Shown here: one piece after another, positions 2,578 to 10,957 of the stretch
Layout of the letters: each line of letters begins with the position of its first letter
Numbering within the stretch: the first letter of the stretch is position 1
The notes under the pieces: generated by a model
What the model was told of the DNA's origin: nothing
Seen by the model: the letters and a program-made list of their open reading frames with translations, nothing else
The model's database searches: none
Program-made: the position numbers and the translations under genes
Assembly (NCBI GenBank): GCA_036479435.1
Contig: JAZGFI010000245.1
Coordinates: 1 to 10,957 of the forward strand
DNA: 10,957 nt
Source: Planctomycetota bacterium
GTDB taxonomy: Bacteria; Planctomycetota; GCA-002687715; DRQF01
Direction of reading: 5' to 3'

Positions 2578-2701
2578 GGTCCGTTGCGACTTTTCGATCA
2601 TCGCACAGCGAAGTCGGTTCGCGACCGACCCGCTTGTTAGAATCCAAATCGGCCTCGATCACAGGCGCTTGGGAACCCGTTTCGGGTTTTCGGGAACCAC
2701 A
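2578..2701 (+). repeat. Solo IS right-end module, copy D (no transposase of its own)
   Basis: 124-bp copy most similar to 135-258, starting ~107 bp after copy C. Confidence 0.88.
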
Positions 2702-3627
2702 ACCGGCTTTGAGATTTCGGAACCACGACCCGCGCGGGGATTTCGGGACACACGAGACTTTTGCACGCTGCGATAGTTGTCCCGTACGTCTACGCCATCC
2801 CAGAACACGCCATTCATATCCTCATGAAATACTAACATCCTCTTTCGAATCAGCGACACCTTCGCAGAAAGAACCAAATCCGAAGCCGCTAGCTCTCGTA
2901 CCCTCTTGGGGCTAACTACCATATTAGAATAGGTCTCAGCTTTATCTTCTGCAACGTTAGTGGTCGCATAGCTCGTCAAGAAGCCTTCGATTGAACCGAC
3001 CAACATTGAGGCTCTAAAGTCGAGAGTGCGTTTCTTATAGACGTAGCTCGTCCCGTTAAGCCGCCGCCAAGTTTCATCCACTGTATCTTGCCCATCCTCG
3101 GCAAAATCAACGAGGTGATAGAGTTCATGGTGAATTACGGTTCGTTGATATCTATCATTGAATTGAGCAGCCGTGATATCGAAGTATAACTCCGAGTTTT
3201 GCTTACAAGCGAGTCCGCTCCTTTCCTCACCTGACCAATTGAGTGCAGAGCATAAGACTACTCGCCTAAGGCCAGCCTTCTTCAGAAAGCTGGCCCGATA
3301 GAGGCTTAGCTCGCCGACAAACAACTCGATGTATTGGGTTACTTGCGAGTGGGGCACACTATTATAAGATATATTCCCCGAGCGATGGATTGTCGTTCCT
3401 CTTGATTGCGCGATTGAGACTTCGATGCCAGTTCGGTCGCAAAAAAACCGTAGCCCACCTCTTGACGCGTCCTCTCGACTCACTCGCCCTTCTTGACCGG
3501 AAACAGCCTCCCGGTCGAGAAGGCTACTGGAACCAAGCGTCTCGCAGATCCACGCCAAGAAAGGCACTGCTATGATTGCAATCAGCAGAAAAACTCTGTT
3601 GAAATGTGCTTTTGATGAGCTCGTCAT
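2659..3627 (-). CDS. Putative membrane-anchored zinc metallopeptidase (zincin-like)
   Basis: N-terminal hydrophobic segment VFLLIAIIAVPFLAWI, HExxH motif (HELYH), downstream GFLTSYATTNVAEDKAE. ATG at 3627 preferred; the ORF is open to 3690. The last ~37 codons run through IS-end sequence. Confidence 0.75.
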   Translation of the reverse strand: MTSSSKAHFNRVFLLIAIIAVPFLAWICETLGSSSLLDREAVSGQEGRVSREDASRGGLRFFCDRTGIEVSIAQSRGTTIHRSGNISYNSVPHSQVTQYIELFVGELSLYRASFLKKAGLRRVVLCSALNWSGEERSGLACKQNSELYFDITAAQFNDRYQRTVIHHELYHLVDFAEDGQDTVDETWRRLNGTSYVYKKRTLDFRASMLVGSIEGFLTSYATTNVAEDKAETYSNMVVSPKRVRELAASDLVLSAKVSLIRKRMLVFHEDMNGVFWDGVDVRDNYRSVQKSRVSRNPRAGRGSEISKPVVVPENPKRVPKRL

Positions 3628-3696
3628 TAGCTCCTCTCGCGATCTGAGGTCAGGCAGCCCACAAGACGGGCACTGTGGTCCGAGAGGCACTCGCTG

Positions 3697-4113
3697 TCAA
3701 TGCCAAGGCCCCCTTCGTGCCCAAGGTAGGGTTGTTCTCAGCTCGGCAATCGGCCTCCTCCACCTTGCACGCAGCACGCGGATTCCCCGCACTGCGCACT
3801 TCGGAAACACTTGTAAATGCCATCGATTTGGCTCCAGCTGCACTTCTTCACCTTTAGCCACTCCAACGAAGCCGGTCTGCTTCAACCAGTCGACCACCAA
3901 GGCCACGAGAAGCCGTGTGAAGCGACTGTCCGGCGCGGCCCAATGCAATTCGACTTGCTTCACTCCGTGCGCGACGCATTCGCCCCAAAGCACGTCGACG
4001 ATCACGTCGTACCCGCAAGAGTGTCGAGGTGACGCTTTCATTGGTCGCGACGGGCGTAGCCAGGGCTCTTCGAGCCGCACTCGGGACGGGGCAAACGCGA
4101 AACTCGGAGACAC
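3697..4113 (-). CDS. Possible hypothetical protein or gene remnant
   Basis: Co-oriented with neighbours, stops just upstream of the peptidase ORF, and has a protein-like middle (FTRLLVALVVDWLKQTGFVG). No recognisable motif or RBS; start uncertain. Confidence 0.3.
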   Translation of the reverse strand: MSPSFAFAPSRVRLEEPWLRPSRPMKASPRHSCGYDVIVDVLWGECVAHGVKQVELHWAAPDSRFTRLLVALVVDWLKQTGFVGVAKGEEVQLEPNRWHLQVFPKCAVRGIRVLRARWRRPIAELRTTLPWARRGPWH

Positions 4114-4320
4114 TGCTCACGGCAACCTCAACTTTGCATTCTCTGTCAATGCCAGCGCGACAGCTGTGACTCTCAACAGAGGGGAAACGCCTAGCATAGG
4201 AGCGTTTGATTTTTTTGTCGCTCAATAGCCAAGAACACAAACTCCTGTAGGACGCGACGAAAAAACAATAGCTCAAAGACCACACGCAATAGCCACTCGA
4301 AACCCCGAAGCACCAGATCA

Positions 4321-5265
4321 TTATTGACAGATTAACGAAAACGACTTTTCCAGTTTTGCCAGACGACTCCGTCCCTTGATTAGCTCCTCTCTCGTTTTCT
4401 TTACCGCATCTTTCAGCGCGACGGCGACTTCTTCCCAGCTACTGCTATGTTCAGAAAGCTGATCTATCCATGCATAGTTCCCGGTTTGGTCGCGAAAAAT
4501 GGACCAGCGTTCGGCCACGACGTCGCGTTTATGGCGCGCAAGTATGATCGTCTTATCTCCCAAATCAGCGACCGCTTTCTTTGACTTCGTTATCTCCTTG
4601 CCTATCCACTCGCAGAGATCTACACCTGCAGGAGCTTCATTTAGGATCTCCAACAACTCCGGCGGAATCGGTTTAGGCGGGGCTGGGCGCGGGCCAGCGG
4701 GGCCAGGCGCTGGTTCTGGAATCGGAGTCTCAGCGTACCTCAAGCAGTCACCATTCGGCCCCATTCTAACGTGAGGTGGCGGGCAAGTAGGGTCTACAAT
4801 CAAACAAGACCCGTCCGCCAACCGCGTGAAGAGCGGCGGAGGACAAGTAGAGTTGTGCCACCCATCCGGCGGCGCTGGATCACCGTAATTGTAGCAATCT
4901 CCATTCGCCAATCTGACCTGAGGAGGCGGACACGTTGGGTCGGGATAAGCCCCAACTGGCAGACCGAACATCGGCCTTTCTTGCTTCGCAATCGAACCGG
5001 ATCCCACGCCTGCCCCCAACCTCACCACTACAGGTTCAAATGGGGTCGCCCGGCGAGGCAAATGCTGCGGAGAAGAAACATCAGGCTCATCGGGGTTCGC
5101 ACCAGGCAAGATGCCGCCACCACAATCGGCGCACGCTGGTTGGCTTGAATCTCCGCCCTGATCAAAAACGACAACGGGGGCAGTCTCTTGTTCTCGCACC
5201 ACCCTCTTTTGACCGCGGCCTTTGCCTCGGGTCCACTCGTCATTTTCGAAGTTTGATTTTTCCAT
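4321..5265 (-). CDS. Hypothetical protein with three Cys-Pro repeats, Pro-rich linker and helical/coiled-coil C-terminus
   Basis: Long ORF (open to 5295); ATG at 5265 is preceded by GGAGAGAAGAAA. Contains CADC, 3x TCPPP...R..(N/D)G.C, and PIPEPAPGPAGPRPAPPKPIPP. Confidence 0.75.
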   Translation of the reverse strand: MEKSNFENDEWTRGKGRGQKRVVREQETAPVVVFDQGGDSSQPACADCGGGILPGANPDEPDVSSPQHLPRRATPFEPVVVRLGAGVGSGSIAKQERPMFGLPVGAYPDPTCPPPQVRLANGDCYNYGDPAPPDGWHNSTCPPPLFTRLADGSCLIVDPTCPPPHVRMGPNGDCLRYAETPIPEPAPGPAGPRPAPPKPIPPELLEILNEAPAGVDLCEWIGKEITKSKKAVADLGDKTIILARHKRDVVAERWSIFRDQTGNYAWIDQLSEHSSSWEEVAVALKDAVKKTREELIKGRSRLAKLEKSFSLICQ

Positions 5266-5363
5266 TTTCTTCTCTCCAAAGTTGACTGGGCTCATGCCTC
5301 AACCACATTTGGTCAATTTTCGACCTCAGCTGCAATCGCTTCACAACTCATGGTGGTTCTTCT

Positions 5364-5750
5364 TCATTGGTCAGAGAAAACCAATTCGGAATCAAATCGA
5401 ACAGTTGCTCCCGTACCCGATACGGCAGCCCGTAAGCGAATAAACGGGTAATCCACATCAACCACCGCAGACGACGCTTCAGTCACCGGCGGTGCATCGG
5501 AAGCAGCGTTCACTGTCACCGTAGCACCTGACAGACCCTTCACCTGCCAAACAACGCCGTCGTAGCTGCCAAGAACTGCGACTTTAAGGGACGCTGACGT
5601 TCCTTCCAGGTTGAGAATCGCAACGTTGACCCTCATCGAGTGCGTCGGTGCGGTCACTGCTTCGGAGTCGATCTCATCAACGAGCGCCGGCGTCGTGACA
5701 ACATTTGAAAGCAACGCGTTCCGCAGAAGCGTGTAAGACTGATTGATCAC
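5364..5750 (-). CDS. Hypothetical beta-rich protein, paralogue 4 of 4 (128 aa)
   Basis: GTG start with GGAGG RBS. Motifs GSYDGVVW, DYPFIRL, FDSELVFSDQ* shared with the three upstream ORFs. Confidence 0.88.
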   Translation of the reverse strand: MINQSYTLLRNALLSNVVTTPALVDEIDSEAVTAPTHSMRVNVAILNLEGTSASLKVAVLGSYDGVVWQVKGLSGATVTVNAASDAPPVTEASSAVVDVDYPFIRLRAAVSGTGATVRFDSELVFSDQ

Positions 5751-5764
5751 GGTCAGGCCTCCAA

Positions 5765-6142
5765 TTATTGCGCCGAGAACACGACGCTCGCATCGAAAAG
5801 CGCGGAATGCGAGCTATCGACGTTCTTGATTTCGGCGGCAAGCCGCGCGAACGCGAAATCGACGGAACTGAGCTTGCTGCCGCTTTTGTCCACCACACCC
5901 TGGGCATCAAATTCTACAGCATCGGCTTGCGCCACAAACCACGCTCGCCCGTCATAGCTAGCTTCTACTGAAACAGCCAAGCTTGATTGAGTACCGAGGT
6001 TTGTGGAATTCAAGAGCGTCGCAGAGACGACAAGAGCGTTGCCAGCGACAGCTACCGGCGTGGAACGGATGTGTGAAACAAACCCTCCCTTGCCCGTTAA
6101 GTACGACCGGCTGAACACACGAAAAAGCGGATGCCTTTTCAC
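5765..6142 (-). CDS. Hypothetical beta-rich protein, paralogue 3 of 4 (125 aa)
   Basis: GTG start 1 nt after the upstream stop. Motifs STPVAVAGN, ASYDGRAW, DFAFARL, FDASVVFSAQ*. Confidence 0.88.
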   Translation of the reverse strand: MKRHPLFRVFSRSYLTGKGGFVSHIRSTPVAVAGNALVVSATLLNSTNLGTQSSLAVSVEASYDGRAWFVAQADAVEFDAQGVVDKSGSKLSSVDFAFARLAAEIKNVDSSHSALFDASVVFSAQ

Positions 6143-6143
6143 C

Positions 6144-6503
6144 CTACTGCTCCGAGAACGCCAAGAAGGCGTCGAACACGGCCTTGAGCGACGTTCCTAT
6201 CGATGCGCCCTCTGCGCGAATGCGAATCCAAGCGAAATCCAAGTTCGCTTGAGAGCTGTCGTAGTATCCGAAACTAGATGCCTTGATCGCGGTGCCCGTG
6301 TTTTCCCAGGCCTTGCCGTCATAAGAGCCTTGCATCTGCAATGAGAGTGTCTCTGATCCGGCGGCGGCAAGATTGATCACCGTTGCTGCCATCACAACTT
6401 TGTTACCGCGCGCTGCCACGGGCGAAGACGTAATGGTGCCAAGATCCGAAGAACTCGTTGATTCAACGTATTGCTCGTTGAAGACCTGCATGGACATGTT
6501 CAT
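6144..6503 (-). CDS. Hypothetical beta-rich protein, paralogue 2 of 4 (119 aa)
   Basis: ATG with GGAGAGG RBS. Motifs SSPVAARGN, GSYDGKAW, DFAWIRI, FDAFLAFSEQ*. Confidence 0.9.
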   Translation of the reverse strand: MNMSMQVFNEQYVESTSSSDLGTITSSPVAARGNKVVMAATVINLAAAGSETLSLQMQGSYDGKAWENTGTAIKASSFGYYDSSQANLDFAWIRIRAEGASIGTSLKAVFDAFLAFSEQ

Positions 6504-6513
6504 GAAACCTCTC

Positions 6514-6861
6514 CTACTGCTCGCTTTGTGAAATAGTTGAGCTGAAAAGCACAGCTGAACTGCTACCTGAAAGAAGAATGCTGATTCGAACGAAAGCTGC
6601 GGCGACCTTGCTCACAACGTACGTTGAATGTCCAAACCCCGTTATGGTTTGACCATCCAATCGGTTCCAAGCCACGCCGTCATTGCTGCCGTAGAGATCA
6701 ACAAACATGCTGAAAGAGCCTCGTGCCAAGATGCTCGTGGTCGAAACGGCAAGTTGGTTGCCGACGACTTCGATGGGAGCAGACTCCCGCACACCTATGT
6801 TGATGGGGCTCCCATCGGTCGCGAGATACTCGCGCTCAAACACGTTTGTCGCCGTTGACAT
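6514..6861 (-). CDS. Hypothetical beta-rich protein, paralogue 1 of 4 (115 aa)
   Basis: ATG at 6861 with GAGG RBS aligns best with the paralogues (ORF is open to 6885). Motifs SAPIEVVGN, GSNDGVAW, AFVRI, FSSTISQSEQ*. Confidence 0.87.
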   Translation of the reverse strand: MSTATNVFEREYLATDGSPINIGVRESAPIEVVGNQLAVSTTSILARGSFSMFVDLYGSNDGVAWNRLDGQTITGFGHSTYVVSKVAAAFVRISILLSGSSSAVLFSSTISQSEQ

Positions 6862-7211
6862 GAGCCGCCTCAAAATTGACTCCACGATTCGTCAGAAGAA
6901 TTCGAAACTGTGGTGTCTGCCTGTGATCGGCCGAAACGTAGCCCCTGCGATCCGCCGCGTCAACAAGTTTCCATTTGGAGTCAGATTTCGGCGGCTCACC
7001 GCCGAAAACCAGAGCTTGAGGGCTTCGAGTGACCACAGTCTTGAGGCCGCACTTTCTTCGATTCTGTGACGCCGGTTCCTGAGCGCATTCGATCTTGGTG
7101 ATATGGTCAAACCGCCTCAAGGTCGCATTTCGGGTGTAATGCGACTACGCCGATTGACCATACTTTTGCCCCACTATGCGATGGATTCGGCCCATCATGG
7201 CCAGGTCTGGT

Positions 7212-7381
7212 TGGCACCATCAAGGCCGCGGTAACCCCAAATCCCAGAGAAAAATGGCACCCTTGGCACCCCCTAAACCAAAAAACGGATGGTGCCATTT
7301 TCGAGTTTTCTGCCCTAACCCACCAATGGGGCGGGACTTAAAAATGGCACCATCGAGCGCAAAAAATGGCACCCGGTGCCA
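7212..7381. repeat. Cluster of seven TGGCACC motifs in direct and inverted orientation
   Basis: Forward at 7212, 7255, 7264, 7345, 7367; reverse at 7291, 7375. Perfect 14-bp inverted pair 7288-7301/7341-7354; palindrome 7367-7381. Confidence 0.85.
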
Positions 7382-7816
7382 AGCGGTGACACCCTTAAAG
7401 CACAAATTCATGTCCCCGAAGAGATGTCGTTATTGCCCCACTCCAGCTCTTCATTCGACCGTCCCCGCCAAGGAAGAAGCTAAGCCCGTGCGCACGATCG
7501 CGGCGCATTCCGAGACACCCTTCCAAGACACCGCATCGAGCCACCGCGCTGGGGTCACCCGACGTAGCGCGTAACCGGTTCGTCCGGGCTTGGCTAACCG
7601 CTGGCCATTCCAAAACCACGTCGAGTGAAATGGCGGTTGATCCCTCGCGGGGGCGGCGCAAGCGCGTCGTGGCAGAGCGAGGCAAAACAAGTCTGTCGGG
7701 CTTAGCCCACTTCCGATGATCCCGATGACCGAAAGCGTCATGGGGGGAGGGGGGGCTTATTCAGCGGGAGTGCTTTTTGGAGCGTTGGCACTAGGCTTCA
7801 GACCCCAAGCGGTCGC

Positions 7817-7849
7817 AAAAGAAGGGGCAGCCACCACGGACCGCCCTTC
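7817..7849 (-). terminator. Probable intrinsic terminator of the AT-hook/wHTH gene
   Basis: Minus strand reads GAAGGGCGG-TCCGTGGTGG-CTGCCCCTTC-TTTT, an imperfect GC stem plus T run, 24 nt after the stop at 7874. Confidence 0.55.
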
Positions 7850-7873
7850 CCCAGTTCGCAATTTGTCACTTGC

Positions 7874-8362
7874 CTAAGCTACGTGATATTCGGTCCCACG
7901 AGCCTGTCCCTGGCGCTTTACCATCTTCTGATCCACCAAGGATTGCAAGGCTCTGCGCACCTGCACGGACTCGCCACCGACTTCCGCTCGAACCGATTCG
8001 GCCCCGAGTTGCCCACCATCTGCCGACAAGATCGCAAACACATCTCGCACCAGCTCTTCTCTTCCGGCAGCGGTGCGCGTGTTGCGGGCGCGGTCCTTCA
8101 TCGTCTTCACCGCAGCCTTCGCGGTTGACCCTTTGGGACGACCTGGGCCGCGCTTTGTGGGCTGACCGCCAACCGCGGTCAAAAACTCCTTCACGCTGAG
8201 TGCGTTGAGTTCTGCGGCAAAGTCGGCGGCTTTGAATCCATCGATGATCTCGCCCATGGTCGCCGACTGCGGAATCGCCGCCAGCGCTTTATTGACGAAC
8301 TCAGCATTTACCCTCTCGATAGCGCCGGTGATAACGCTCTCAATTCTTGTTTGCTTGGCCAT
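7874..8362 (-). CDS. Putative DNA-binding protein: AT-hook plus C-terminal winged helix-turn-helix
   Basis: KRGPGRPKG AT-hook-like motif. C-terminal VRRALQSLVDQKMVKRQGQARGTEY fits a wHTH recognition helix and wing. ATG at 8362 has GGAG upstream (alternative start 8383). Confidence 0.82.
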   Translation of the reverse strand: MAKQTRIESVITGAIERVNAEFVNKALAAIPQSATMGEIIDGFKAADFAAELNALSVKEFLTAVGGQPTKRGPGRPKGSTAKAAVKTMKDRARNTRTAAGREELVRDVFAILSADGGQLGAESVRAEVGGESVQVRRALQSLVDQKMVKRQGQARGTEYHVA

Positions 8363-8506
8363 AGTGGGATCACTCCGGTTCATTCTTCGTTTTCCACGCC
8401 GATGGAAGCTTCGTAGCGAGTATCCCCGTAATGTGCTATTAATTCAATGGCATTCCTTCCGAGTCATCATTCCAAGTCGCCATATTCACCGACTGCGAGA
8501 CTGGAC

Positions 8507-9727
8507 ATGACTGACACTTTGATCACCGAGACGGTCAAACTTGATCGCCTCTTCCCCAACCCTTCGAATCCCCGCTTCAACGACGAGGCCATTCCGCACG
8601 TTGCGGCTTCCTTGCGCCGTTTCGGATGGCAGCAGCCCATCGTCGCGAAGATGAGCGGCGAGATCATTGCCGGGCATACTCGGTTTTTAGCTGCCCAGTC
8701 TCTTTCCATGCAGGAGATCCCCGTTGTGTGGTTCGAAGGCGATGATCTGGAAGCCGTGGCCTTTGGGATTGCCGACAATAGGACCGGCGAGTTTGCGAGC
8801 TGGGATGACGAGGCTTTGGCGAAGCTCCTAAGCCAGCTGCGAGACGAAGATGCCCTCGAAGGCGTTGGCTACGACGACAAGGAGATCGATGCCCTCCTCC
8901 ACTCGGTCTTAGAGGAATCGGATCTCGAAGATGCAGGAGCCGAAGAGCCGCCGGAAAACCCTTTCACGAAGAAAGGGGATCTCTGGCTACTCGGCAAGCA
9001 TCGCGTGTTGTGCGGCGACGCCACCAACGAGCGCGACGTCGAGACCCTTCTTGCGGGCAAGCGCCCTGGCCTCATGATCACCGACCCGCCCTACGGCGTG
9101 AGCTACCGGCCGGAGTGGCGACAAGAAGCGGGCTTGGCTGACGGCGGCAAGACAGCCGAAGTCGCCAACGATGAGCGCGTGGACTGGACCGATGCCTGGC
9201 GTTTATTCCCCGGCGAGGTCGCCTACGTTTGGCACGCGGGTGTACATTCACCATCGGTAGGTCAGCAACTCATGGACGTCGGTTTCGACATCCGTTCGCA
9301 GATCATCTGGGCCAAGAACCGCTTTGCGATCAGCCGAGGCCATTACCACTGGCAGCACGAGCCCTGTTTCTACGTCGTTCGATCGAGCGCCACCGCATCA
9401 TGGGGCGGAGACCACGCTCAATGCACCCTGTGGCCCATCGCACATGACAAGGACGACCAAACCGAGCACTCAACGCAAAAGCCCTTGGAGTGCATGCTGC
9501 GACCCCTACGCAATCATGACATCCATGATGTCTATGACCCTTTTCTGGGCTCGGGTACGACCATCATCGCAGCAGAGAAGCTCAACCGGCGTTGTTTTGG
9601 TTTGGAGCTAACGCCAAGGTTTTGCGATGTGATCATTTCTCGTTGGGAAAAGGCCACGGGGCAGGAAGCGATTCTTGAGTCGAGCAAAGAGAACTTCATA
9701 ACCACCGCGGAACGCCGCGCTGACTGA
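8507..9727 (+). CDS. ParB/Srx-like N-terminal domain fused to N6/N4 DNA methyltransferase (beta order), prophage type
   Basis: NPRFND...SLRRFGWQQPIV...IIAGHTR...IADNR (ParB-N); GDLWLLGKHRVLCGDAT; catalytic TDPPY precedes HSTQKP and SAM-binding DPFLGSGTT. Start at 8507 preferred over 8447. Confidence 0.93.
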   Translation: MTDTLITETVKLDRLFPNPSNPRFNDEAIPHVAASLRRFGWQQPIVAKMSGEIIAGHTRFLAAQSLSMQEIPVVWFEGDDLEAVAFGIADNRTGEFASWDDEALAKLLSQLRDEDALEGVGYDDKEIDALLHSVLEESDLEDAGAEEPPENPFTKKGDLWLLGKHRVLCGDATNERDVETLLAGKRPGLMITDPPYGVSYRPEWRQEAGLADGGKTAEVANDERVDWTDAWRLFPGEVAYVWHAGVHSPSVGQQLMDVGFDIRSQIIWAKNRFAISRGHYHWQHEPCFYVVRSSATASWGGDHAQCTLWPIAHDKDDQTEHSTQKPLECMLRPLRNHDIHDVYDPFLGSGTTIIAAEKLNRRCFGLELTPRFCDVIISRWEKATGQEAILESSKENFITTAERRAD

Positions 9728-10332
9728 TGAGCACCAAGCTCCCAAGTGAAGCCGTCGACTATTACCTCTCCTTGGGGGCAGAGCGAAGCTACATCGCGGT
9801 GGCGAGACTATTCGAGGTTTCGAAACGCACGGTCTCCAGGAGAGCGGCTGAGGAAGATTGGCAATCACGAGTTGAGGAGCTGGAACGACCGGATCGGGAG
9901 CAAGCCTTCGAACAAAAAAAGGCGCAGCAGGCTGTCGAGGTGACCCGCGTCAACGGGCTGCAGGATGCCTTTCGGGAAGTCATCACGCCGCAACGCATGA
10001 AGGCCCTGGTCGCGACTATGTTTAAGAATGCAGTCCAAAAAGACGATGTGCGAGCCGCGAGATTTCTGATTGAACGTTCGCTGGGGCGTGCGCGCAATGA
10101 GCCCCTAAGCCCCGTCAGTTTGGACCTCCCGAACGGCCTGGAGACCACGACCGATATCCGCCGGGCCGCCAACTCACTTTTGCAGAGCATCGCCGATGGA
10201 AGCCTTGCGCCGGAAGACGCGCAGAAAGCCGCCATGGTTTTGGAGGCAGTTCGCACGTCGATTGAAACTGAGGATCTTGAAAAGCGCCTGATCGAACTCG
10301 AAGAGCAATTGAAGCGGCAGGACAAACCATGA
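9727..10332 (+). CDS. HTH protein, terminase-small-subunit-like
   Basis: TGATG overlap with the MTase. N-terminal YYLSLGAERSYIAVARLFEVSKRTVSRRAAEEDW HTH, DVRAARFLIERSLG helix, C-terminal DLEKRLIELEEQL coiled coil. Sits after ParB-MTase as in phage packaging regions. Function is inferred. Confidence 0.65.
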   Translation: MSTKLPSEAVDYYLSLGAERSYIAVARLFEVSKRTVSRRAAEEDWQSRVEELERPDREQAFEQKKAQQAVEVTRVNGLQDAFREVITPQRMKALVATMFKNAVQKDDVRAARFLIERSLGRARNEPLSPVSLDLPNGLETTTDIRRAANSLLQSIADGSLAPEDAQKAAMVLEAVRTSIETEDLEKRLIELEEQLKRQDKP

Positions 10333-10625
10333 GGCTGAAGCAGCGGGTTCGACGCCTGTCACGGCTCATCGAAGTCGCGCCACCGGAAGACATGGGCTTT
10401 TTGCCAGCGAACTTTGCAGAGGACATCGCCGGTGTCGAGTTGTCCACCATGGCGGTTCGCGACCGGCTTGCAGCTCATGCCCGCTACCGCGAGCAATCTG
10501 CGCCCGTGTTCGCCGAGATTGACGCTGCCATGAAGGCGGAGGCCGAGGCTCTGGCCGATTCCACCAGTTCGGGGCCAAGATCCCCTGGGAAACCTCAGGG
10601 CTCTGAAGAGCTTATTGACGACTGA
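10329..10625 (+). CDS. Hypothetical protein, 98 aa
   Basis: ATGA overlap with the upstream stop; basic amphipathic N-terminus MRLKQRVRRLSR. Confidence 0.7.
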   Translation: MRLKQRVRRLSRLIEVAPPEDMGFLPANFAEDIAGVELSTMAVRDRLAAHARYREQSAPVFAEIDAAMKAEAEALADSTSSGPRSPGKPQGSEELIDD

Positions 10626-10712: not shown

Positions 10713-10889
10713 ATGGACGCCAATTCCAAGAGAACCCCAAGCACCCCCAAGGCACAAGCGAAAGTTTCGACCACGAAGTCACACCCTCAGCAAGTCCTCG
10801 CCCAAGTAGGCACGCTCGGTGAGCTCGCCGAGGTGTCAGCAGCCAACTTAGTCGAGGGCAATTCGGCGATTTATCGCCACGCTCTTTGA
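10713..10889 (+). CDS. Small peptide (58 aa), possible RiPP (lasso-like) precursor
   Basis: GAGGAGG at 10701-10707, 5 nt before the ATG. Sequence MDANSKRTPSTPKAQAKVSTTKSHPQQVLAQVGTLGELAEVSAANLVEGNSAIYRHAL; followed by a long hairpin. Confidence 0.6.
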   Translation: MDANSKRTPSTPKAQAKVSTTKSHPQQVLAQVGTLGELAEVSAANLVEGNSAIYRHAL

Positions 10890-10922
10890 GGCTCGTTGGA
10901 TTCTGAGCCTCAAAGAGCGTGG
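10877..10922 (+). promoter_or_regulatory. 18-bp perfect stem-loop without U-tract (mRNA stabiliser/attenuator-like)
   Basis: CCACGCTCTTTGAGGCTC (10877-10894) pairs with GAGCCTCAAAGAGCGTGG (10905-10922), 10-nt loop; overlaps the peptide stop codon. Confidence 0.8.
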
Positions 10923-10957
10923 TGGTCGGCATCCGAGCCATGCCTTTGAAAACCTCG

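Follow-up and report, generated by a model that had tools for sequence, protein, structure and literature searches.

The window analysed here, a stretch of 10,957 nucleotides that makes up the entire contig C245 of a 5.5-Mb planctomycete genome (G000, 92% complete), carries four adjacent genes for small proteins, named A to D, and raises the question of what such a set serves for. The genes are co-oriented minus-strand open reading frames of 115-128 aa, spaced by 10, 1 and 14 nt; each is preceded by an RBS-like sequence (GAGG/GGAG upstream of every start; that of C overlaps the S-E-Q codons of B). The initial annotation regarded them as an old retained duplication, lacking cysteine and signal peptides. 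All this is borne out: every motif and C-terminal end that it quoted is present, none of the four proteins contains cysteine or a signal peptide, and their identity of 26-35% is significant versus shuffles in all six pairs (local-alignment z = 7.8-23.9; 0 of 1000 shuffles reach the score for each pair). In tblastn, the E values are 1e-12 for B and C and 2e-5 for B and D, and no further close copies were found in the rest of the genome. In sequencing runs of two studies, of which one is possibly the source, a single difference-free contig covers positions 2720-7362, which shows that the two genes downstream lie on the same DNA molecule as the row; no RNA data set was listed among those with this DNA.

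Table 1. Coordinates of the features in and around the gene row of the window.
Feature	Position	Strand	Remarks
Jelly-roll paralogue A	6514..6861	minus	115 aa; ATG 6861, alternative GTG 6885; divergent 'short' type
Jelly-roll paralogue B	6144..6503	minus	119 aa; 'short' type; AF2 pLDDT 94, eight strands
Jelly-roll paralogue C	5765..6142	minus	125 aa; 'long' clade; RBS overlaps last codons of B
Jelly-roll paralogue D	5364..5750	minus	128 aa; 'long' clade
Putative cargo	4321..5265	minus	314 aa, 10 Cys, no hydrophobic N-terminus
Doubtful ORF	3854..4321	minus	TAATG overlap with cargo stop; ~35 hydrophobic aa at the start, remainder shadow-like
ISL3-like transposase remnant	3697..4113	minus	HTH_Tnp_ISL3, E 2.4e-4, below cut-off
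Membrane-anchored HExxH zinc metallopeptidase	2659..3627	minus	Peptidase_Mx1 E 2.4e-7; LIC13305-like, below cut-off
Integrative element, context outside cassette	7117-10625 (genes 7874..10625)		HTH protein, ParB-methyltransferase, terminase-small-like gene, small ORF

B was modelled with AlphaFold2 from a 26-row alignment (pTM 0.85), and by homology A, C and D probably share its single jelly-roll fold. The model and the structure searches agree with the earlier proposal of a jelly roll with relatives of the phage virion type. The first rank was taken by the N-domain of XepA (PDB 6i56/6i5o, the pair with YomS; Z 11.9, rmsd 2.3, 103 aligned), and a wide structure search gave YomS with Z 10.8 (rmsd 2.0, 94 aligned). 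Other matches are a subtilase jelly roll (Z 11.1), IBDV VP2 (Z 10.9), PirA (Z 10.5), Ena2A (Z 10.0) and the BPP-1 cement protein (Bbp16, PDB 3j4u; Z 9.6, 18% identity), followed by general jelly-roll and CBM structures at Z 8-10. As the top matches are tied within about 1 Z, they speak for a single jelly roll but for no particular function. Among predicted phage proteins the TM to B reaches 0.77, and the matches in the ESM Atlas are mostly tailed-phage clusters of the DUF6385 type (TM 0.79 and 0.82 to DUF6385 clusters).

Membership in the F5/8 type C family (PF00754), to which the motifs had been likened, was not upheld: the cut-off is 28.2 bits, whereas A attains 13.1 (E 0.11), B-D have no match, and two of 26 family members score weakly. 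The best 50 matches of the wide structure search include no such domain. Scans of A-D against Pfam, PHROGs and NCBIfam gave nothing above cut-off (weak PHROGs matches are phrog_427 and phrog_16217), the cut-off for DUF6385 (PF19912) was reached by none of A-D or the 26 members scanned (one has E 0.029), and the best E value in a PDB sequence search with A-D was 0.092. Judged by sequence, A-D belong to an undescribed family that no known family claims.

With a limit of E 0.001, a profile of this family matches 818 representatives; the best 150 of these were covered. Two related subfamilies can be distinguished (hhalign probability 98.7): subfamily I, GSYDGxxW...FSxQ, which includes A-D, and subfamily II, SQAVSMxGAN...SNDLxNW...AGINTAxL. 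The family is carried by 6 of the 23 genomes of the class and by 25 of the 401 genomes of the phylum Planctomycetota, with matches per genome reaching at least 11 when the best 11 candidates are scored in each. In a scan of species genomes 21 of 26 subfamily II loci were planctomycete, and almost all tandem rows occur in Planctomycetota. Two or more jelly-roll domains are present at 35 of the 37 loci in the tree, up to seven in the largest row; in this count the copies at L080, L089 and L108 span separate cassettes, and several loci share one genome. The tree is a quick one, based on 113 columns and with many unresolved forks; it places A and B with the 'short' members, C and D with the 'long' ones. 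In the five-gene rows (L065, L066, L067, L072, L073) as well as in the three-gene rows (L071, L078, L083, L084), genes cluster by position and not by locus, which means that the duplication is old and that the paralogues look non-redundant. Recurrence as tandem arrays with position-specific clades is consistent with the non-redundant subunits envisaged by the initial annotation. Some proteins naturally combine two or three jelly-roll domains in one chain (P0021, P0030, P0091, P0132), and some genes that stand first in their row bear Cys-rich N-terminal extensions.

The same annotation took the C-terminal F-x6-S-x-Q to be invariant. This holds for all four proteins of the window but not for the family: among 136 single-domain proteins (A-D included) this end is present in 45 and a C-terminal glutamine in 75. 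Furthermore, L023 is a singleton without S-x-Q, a type of case that had been named as speaking against the proposal. The terminal S-x-Q is a subfamily trait, common but not invariant. That S-E-Q merely reflects the RBS of the next gene would fit the junction of B and C; however, D, L016 and L017, all last in their rows, keep the glutamine, and we rejected this explanation.

Across the loci the order regulator, row, 'cargo' and partner recurs. A sigma-54 activator is encoded less than 1 kb upstream of the row at eight loci, and proteins with sigma-70 region 2 or 4 precede it at six others; neither type of gene lies upstream of the row in the window, where there is only the integrative element of Table 1, no sigma-70 promoter was found before this row, and no sigma-54 promoter candidate in the window scores 5.5 or higher. 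In total, 4 of 33 upstream regions reach this score versus a shuffle mean of 0.71 (maximum 4), so that the sigma-54 promoter signal before the rows is only weak. The gene behind the rows, the cargo, differs between loci; it is signal-less, Cys-rich and frequently swapped. Indeed, the cargo is homologous (E<1e-3) in only one of the 15 locus pairs with a best jelly-roll identity of at least 60% (drawn from 325 pairs of 26 loci), and related cargo recurs behind arrays merely 37-43% alike. A hydrophobic N-terminus is found in 1 of 32 cargo genes versus 64 of 262 in the background (Fisher p 0.003), Cys content of at least 2% in 17 of 32 versus 47 of 262 (p 3e-5), and 13 of the 26 genes after the cargo begin with a hydrophobic or lipobox-like sequence, versus 64 of 262, i.e. 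24% (p 0.009); these p-values overstate the significance, since the cargo/partner pairs were hand-chosen (the 32 cargo genes from heuristic gene calls) and come from related loci. A hydrophobic N-terminus is lacking in half of the partners, and the designation of the partner as a putative, immunity-like gene is derived from its position and from the frequency of such N-termini.

Of the 36 metagenome loci, L131 encodes a protein in which a Pro/Gly linker connects two jelly rolls with a Cys-bounded domain, and the next gene is lipoprotein-like; this fusion ties row and cargo within one protein. Further examples of the cassette are L125, L132, L138 and L140. At L065, L072 and L073 a conserved gene for ~74 aa and a homologous gene for a ~190-aa protein with a Cys run precede the larger second gene that was counted as cargo. 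The ~74-aa acidic protein, a possible adaptor, is encoded right after five-gene rows (L065:10799, L066:4463, L067:10140, L072:8773, L073:10563). Some cassettes of subfamily II contain genes for tail fibre, collar, glycosyltransferase and methyltransferase. At 14 loci a highly conserved unannotated protein of ~188-189 aa (L074:10464-11033 and relatives) adjoins subfamily II rows and has no viral match; its gene often precedes genes whose products begin with M-P-T-(L/I)-R and have tail-fibre-like parts.

Many of these loci are situated among IS elements and integrative islands, and broken jelly-roll copies occur in G015, G201 and G010:C23. One could regard the rows as relics of a decayed prophage or XepA/YomS-like lysis cassette in an insertion hot spot that gathers unrelated orphans. 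However, the rows are intact and tightly spaced, with position-specific orthologues across genera, the order of regulator, row, cargo and partner recurs, with one fusion (L131), and no holin or amidase adjoins the rows in Pfam scans of the neighbours, except for an M23 domain at L065. We regard a relic as very improbable.

In the window, the protein encoded behind the row (Table 1) consists of a Pro/Gly-rich leader, three PTCPPP beta-hairpin repeats, a Pro linker and a Cys-bounded helical hairpin; a single-sequence model (pLDDT 63) shows the beta-hairpin repeats and a long helical hairpin. With its 10 Cys, its disordered leader and no signal it fits the cargo pattern. It is an orphan for which no homologues were found; its matches are generic coiled coils only, the homology to helical cargos of other loci is not significant, and an Atlas search with its C-terminus gave no matches. 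It may be a toxin, to judge only by the cargo of other loci. The partner region of the window is disturbed by an IS remnant. The doubtful ORF that overlaps the cargo stop may be a disrupted partner gene, and the metallopeptidase, which now sits in the partner position, may not be the cognate immunity gene.

The surroundings are rich in mobile DNA. An 86% identical copy of the integrative element is present on contig C120 of the same genome; C9 of this genome, L024, L019 and L148 carry members of the same element family, which encodes integrase, primase-like and recombinase genes and, in G004 and G006, a terminase large subunit. No capsid gene was seen in this satellite-like family. A cluster of direct and inverted repeats of AAAAATGGCAC at 7205-7381 possibly marks an element end or binding sites. 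On the other side, positions 1-2701 hold three nested copies of an IS3-like transposase with an integrase core, which are 84-90% alike and one of which is intact (1279-2307); this element has ~231-nt end repeats at 2347-2701 and recurs on many contigs. A ~125-nt repeat at 10829-10957, common to many contig ends, is likely an IS terminus that broke the assembly.

What the cargo might do can be judged best at other loci. The cargos of L069, L075 and L072 are mutually related, and that of L069 has a weak match to Ntox44 (E 0.0056) with DxK, GNxxxG and DxxxD, which are listed as Ntox44 motifs in the part of PMC3482391 covered here. A profile of these three cargos detects 15 longer proteins, four of which possess RHS or RHS-associated Pfam domains and three DUF4157; the Ntox44-like domain begins just past the end of the DPxG core in the three RHS proteins inspected and forms the end of the DUF4157 proteins. 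When the phylum was searched with the domain alone, seven matches were obtained: four long RHS-type genes, one jelly-roll-linked gene and two standalone copies. The Ntox44-like gene of G010:C23 lies immediately behind a jelly-roll remnant and ahead of a membrane gene, in the same order as in G000. No jelly roll was detectable near the two standalone copies (L160:6495-6896, L159:7503-9095), which are preceded by small beta-rich genes outside the jelly-roll profile, possibly other carrier families. The weak Ntox44 match with its motifs and the presence of the domain in RHS and DUF4157 proteins indicate that the cargo is of toxin type in at least one clade. As for the others, the cargos of L077 and L065 appear to be lipase-like alpha/beta-hydrolases (GxSxG motif and reading by eye), those of L066 and L067 are Tgl-like by a weak score (E 0.031 to PDB 7c9j), those of L071, L078, L092, L125 and L138 are, as read by eye, helical with hydrophobic ends, and two genes downstream of rows resemble those for glycoside hydrolases or penicillin amidases. 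For most cargo genes there is no matching family, and none reaches the toxin cut-offs of Pfam or NCBIfam.

These data bear on a comparison with the Ena1/Ena2 endospore appendages, in which jelly rolls polymerise to a filament; the variable genes would then code for tip adhesins or hydrolases of a surface or matrix fibre. Besides the fold match of Ena2A, ena1A-C likewise form a tandem cluster of paralogous jelly-roll genes (PMC8619143, in part), and glycosyltransferase, methyltransferase and fibre genes in some cassettes as well as the Cys-rich extensions of some first-in-row genes agree with a fibre. However, the Ena subunits require an N-terminal connector with cross-linking Cys, and in the portion of PMC8619143 considered no cargo or partner genes are described for them, whereas A-D possess neither Cys nor such a connector (5% identity to Ena). 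Moreover, one cargo clade is common to RHS toxins, and immunity-like partner genes would be unexpected for a fibre. An Ena-like fibre operon is thus quite improbable.

The jelly rolls could also be an accessory virion module, in which they decorate, together with fibres and cargo, the particles of a helper prophage or satellite, the effectors riding phage heads or tails by a MuF-like logic in trans. The nearest structural neighbours are phage proteins, some cassettes include tail-fibre and collar genes, and ParB-methyltransferase/terminase elements adjoin rows in three genomes (the window, G006:C203, G004:C3). In addition, G000 harbours two Mu-like prophages (C292 and C197), neither of which is linked to the row of the window. 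In the prophage on C292 the gene in tube position is followed by a gene for 99 aa (27266-27565; L150:7266-7565) that matches the jelly-roll HMM with E 0.0015 and is possibly a distant relative, unconfirmed by hhalign (probability 1.2). On the other hand, IMG/VR yielded no match with one query (A3) and, with the other (A4), two 19-residue matches (E 5e-4) that we judged unconvincing, and GenBank phages gave no match to the family. No capsid gene module was found beside the rows among the called neighbours, and no sheath or capsid matched in four other carriers; however, the Pfam models (PF04984, PF05065) missed the sheath and capsid of the prophages of G000, which PHROGs detected, and Pfam searches for sheath, tube and capsid are therefore unreliable. 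The dedicated sigma-54 activator or sigma-70-type genes before many rows are a further argument against a virion module, which is on the whole unlikely.

Alternatively, the row could provide adaptors or chaperones for another secretion machine, a T6SS or an unrecognised one; the role of the jelly rolls would then be to load the cargo, with no particle of their own. Rows and cargo do not have signal peptides, disordered leaders resemble loading signals, and G000 does possess a T6SS, which is also not linked to the row. Among the carriers examined, however, T6SS was found only in G000 and a sheath only in its prophages; Hcp is absent in 4 of 4 and VipB in 5 of 5 other carriers, whose genomes are 85-92% complete, with false negatives of Pfam known, and no secretion genes recur near the rows. 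The adaptor model is decidedly unlikely.

Our preferred reading, which we consider rather probable, is that Planctomycetota possess an undescribed polymorphic effector (toxin)-immunity cassette and that A-D are its conserved front module, derived from phages; this module would probably act as a hetero-oligomeric carrier. The combination of swapped cargo with an immunity-like gene downstream points to a toxin-delivery cassette rather than to the virion vertex or diversified binding repertoire considered initially, and toxin-immunity at the level of the cassette is held with moderate confidence. The constant front module with a swapped effector, as known from polymorphic toxins, is evident from the single close pair of 15 that shares its cargo and from the L131 fusion; an effector domain common to other delivery routes was found for one cargo clade only, the Ntox44-like one (RHS, DUF4157). 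Counting against the cassette are the tail-fibre, glycosyltransferase, methyltransferase, glycoside-hydrolase-like or penicillin-amidase-like genes downstream at some loci and the fact that only one of the seven Ntox44-like matches in the phylum is jelly-roll-linked.

Tentatively, the jelly rolls may assemble into the carrier by themselves. This model is preferred to the adaptor, helper-phage and fibre models because Hcp, sheath and VipB were not found in the other carriers examined (with incomplete genomes and Pfam false negatives) and no viral match was convincing, and by analogy with the XepA and YomS pentamers. The jelly rolls would be made in the cytoplasm and co-assemble into a hetero-oligomer, in its simplest form a XepA/YomS-like five-fold disc or a larger shell, to which tail-fibre-like proteins would be fitted at some loci. 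Row sizes of 1 to 7 argue against one fixed stoichiometry such as a hetero-pentamer. The carrier would bind the disordered leader of the cargo, leave the cell by lysis or another route and bring the Cys-stabilised cargo to the envelope of a competitor, while the envelope-located partner would protect kin. In its full form, a self-contained antibacterial particle, this model is speculative: several non-equivalent jelly rolls of phage origin might form a hetero-oligomeric disc or mini-shell. It would take up any of many interchangeable signal-less toxins via the disordered leaders of these, could carry glycosylated fibres, and would need neither a tail nor a capsid nor a secretion system for its release.

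How does such a cassette relate to known systems? The 4+4 jelly roll of about 110 aa seen in the B model is that of XepA and YomS, its best structural matches. According to the sections of PMC6834076 used here, XepA (PBSX) is cytotoxic, and both XepA and YomS (SPbeta) are pentamers. They differ in sequence (12% and 1% identity to B) and are homopentamers from Bacillus prophage lytic cassettes, whereas here several paralogues occur with swapped cargo and partner genes, and neither the window nor the neighbours at other loci include a lytic cassette of holin and amidase. DUF6385 and Bbp16, single jelly rolls of phages, resemble B in structure (see above), and the accessible part of PMC13700489 describes an archaeal virus protein whose DUF6385 domain is a jelly roll; the family studied here stays below the Pfam cut-off, is not convincingly found in viral collections and resides in cellular cassettes.

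A jelly roll is paired with a toxin subunit in the PirA/PirB binary toxin, where one jelly roll and one fixed toxin are aimed at animals. PirA is likewise a small jelly roll (PDB 7fcn, 3x0t), but several paralogues, swapped cargo and immunity-like genes distinguish the present cassettes. The polymorphic toxin systems (RHS, DUF4157/PVC, MuF), as far as covered in PMC3482391, have in common with them a constant front, a variable toxin domain and an adjacent immunity-like gene, and RHS and DUF4157 proteins share the Ntox44-like domain. Here, however, separate jelly-roll genes in a row make up the constant part (cargo-fused at one locus), and no known secretion genes are linked to it. The word 'jelly' is absent from the main text of PMC3482391, the supplements of which, outside this search, could hold relevant neighbourhoods. 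No description of the family or of the cassette was found in the literature searched, which omits most subscription papers. On the best reading, the cassette functions as polymorphic toxin systems do, whereas its front module is of an undescribed type.

Planctomycetota hold many orphan toxin-like genes, among which those without signal peptides or RHS repeats raise the question of how their products leave the cell. A small, defined jelly-roll set tied to swapped effectors makes this export question directly testable. The self-contained particle, if true, would be a delivery class missing from current catalogues of polymorphic toxins. Our reading would give a function to a large unannotated family and would show that accessory jelly rolls of phages have been domesticated for competition. 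As most cargo genes match no family, the jelly-roll rows would also be useful markers in the search for new effector and immunity domains. The family suggests a new way for planctomycetes to package and deliver weapons against rivals.
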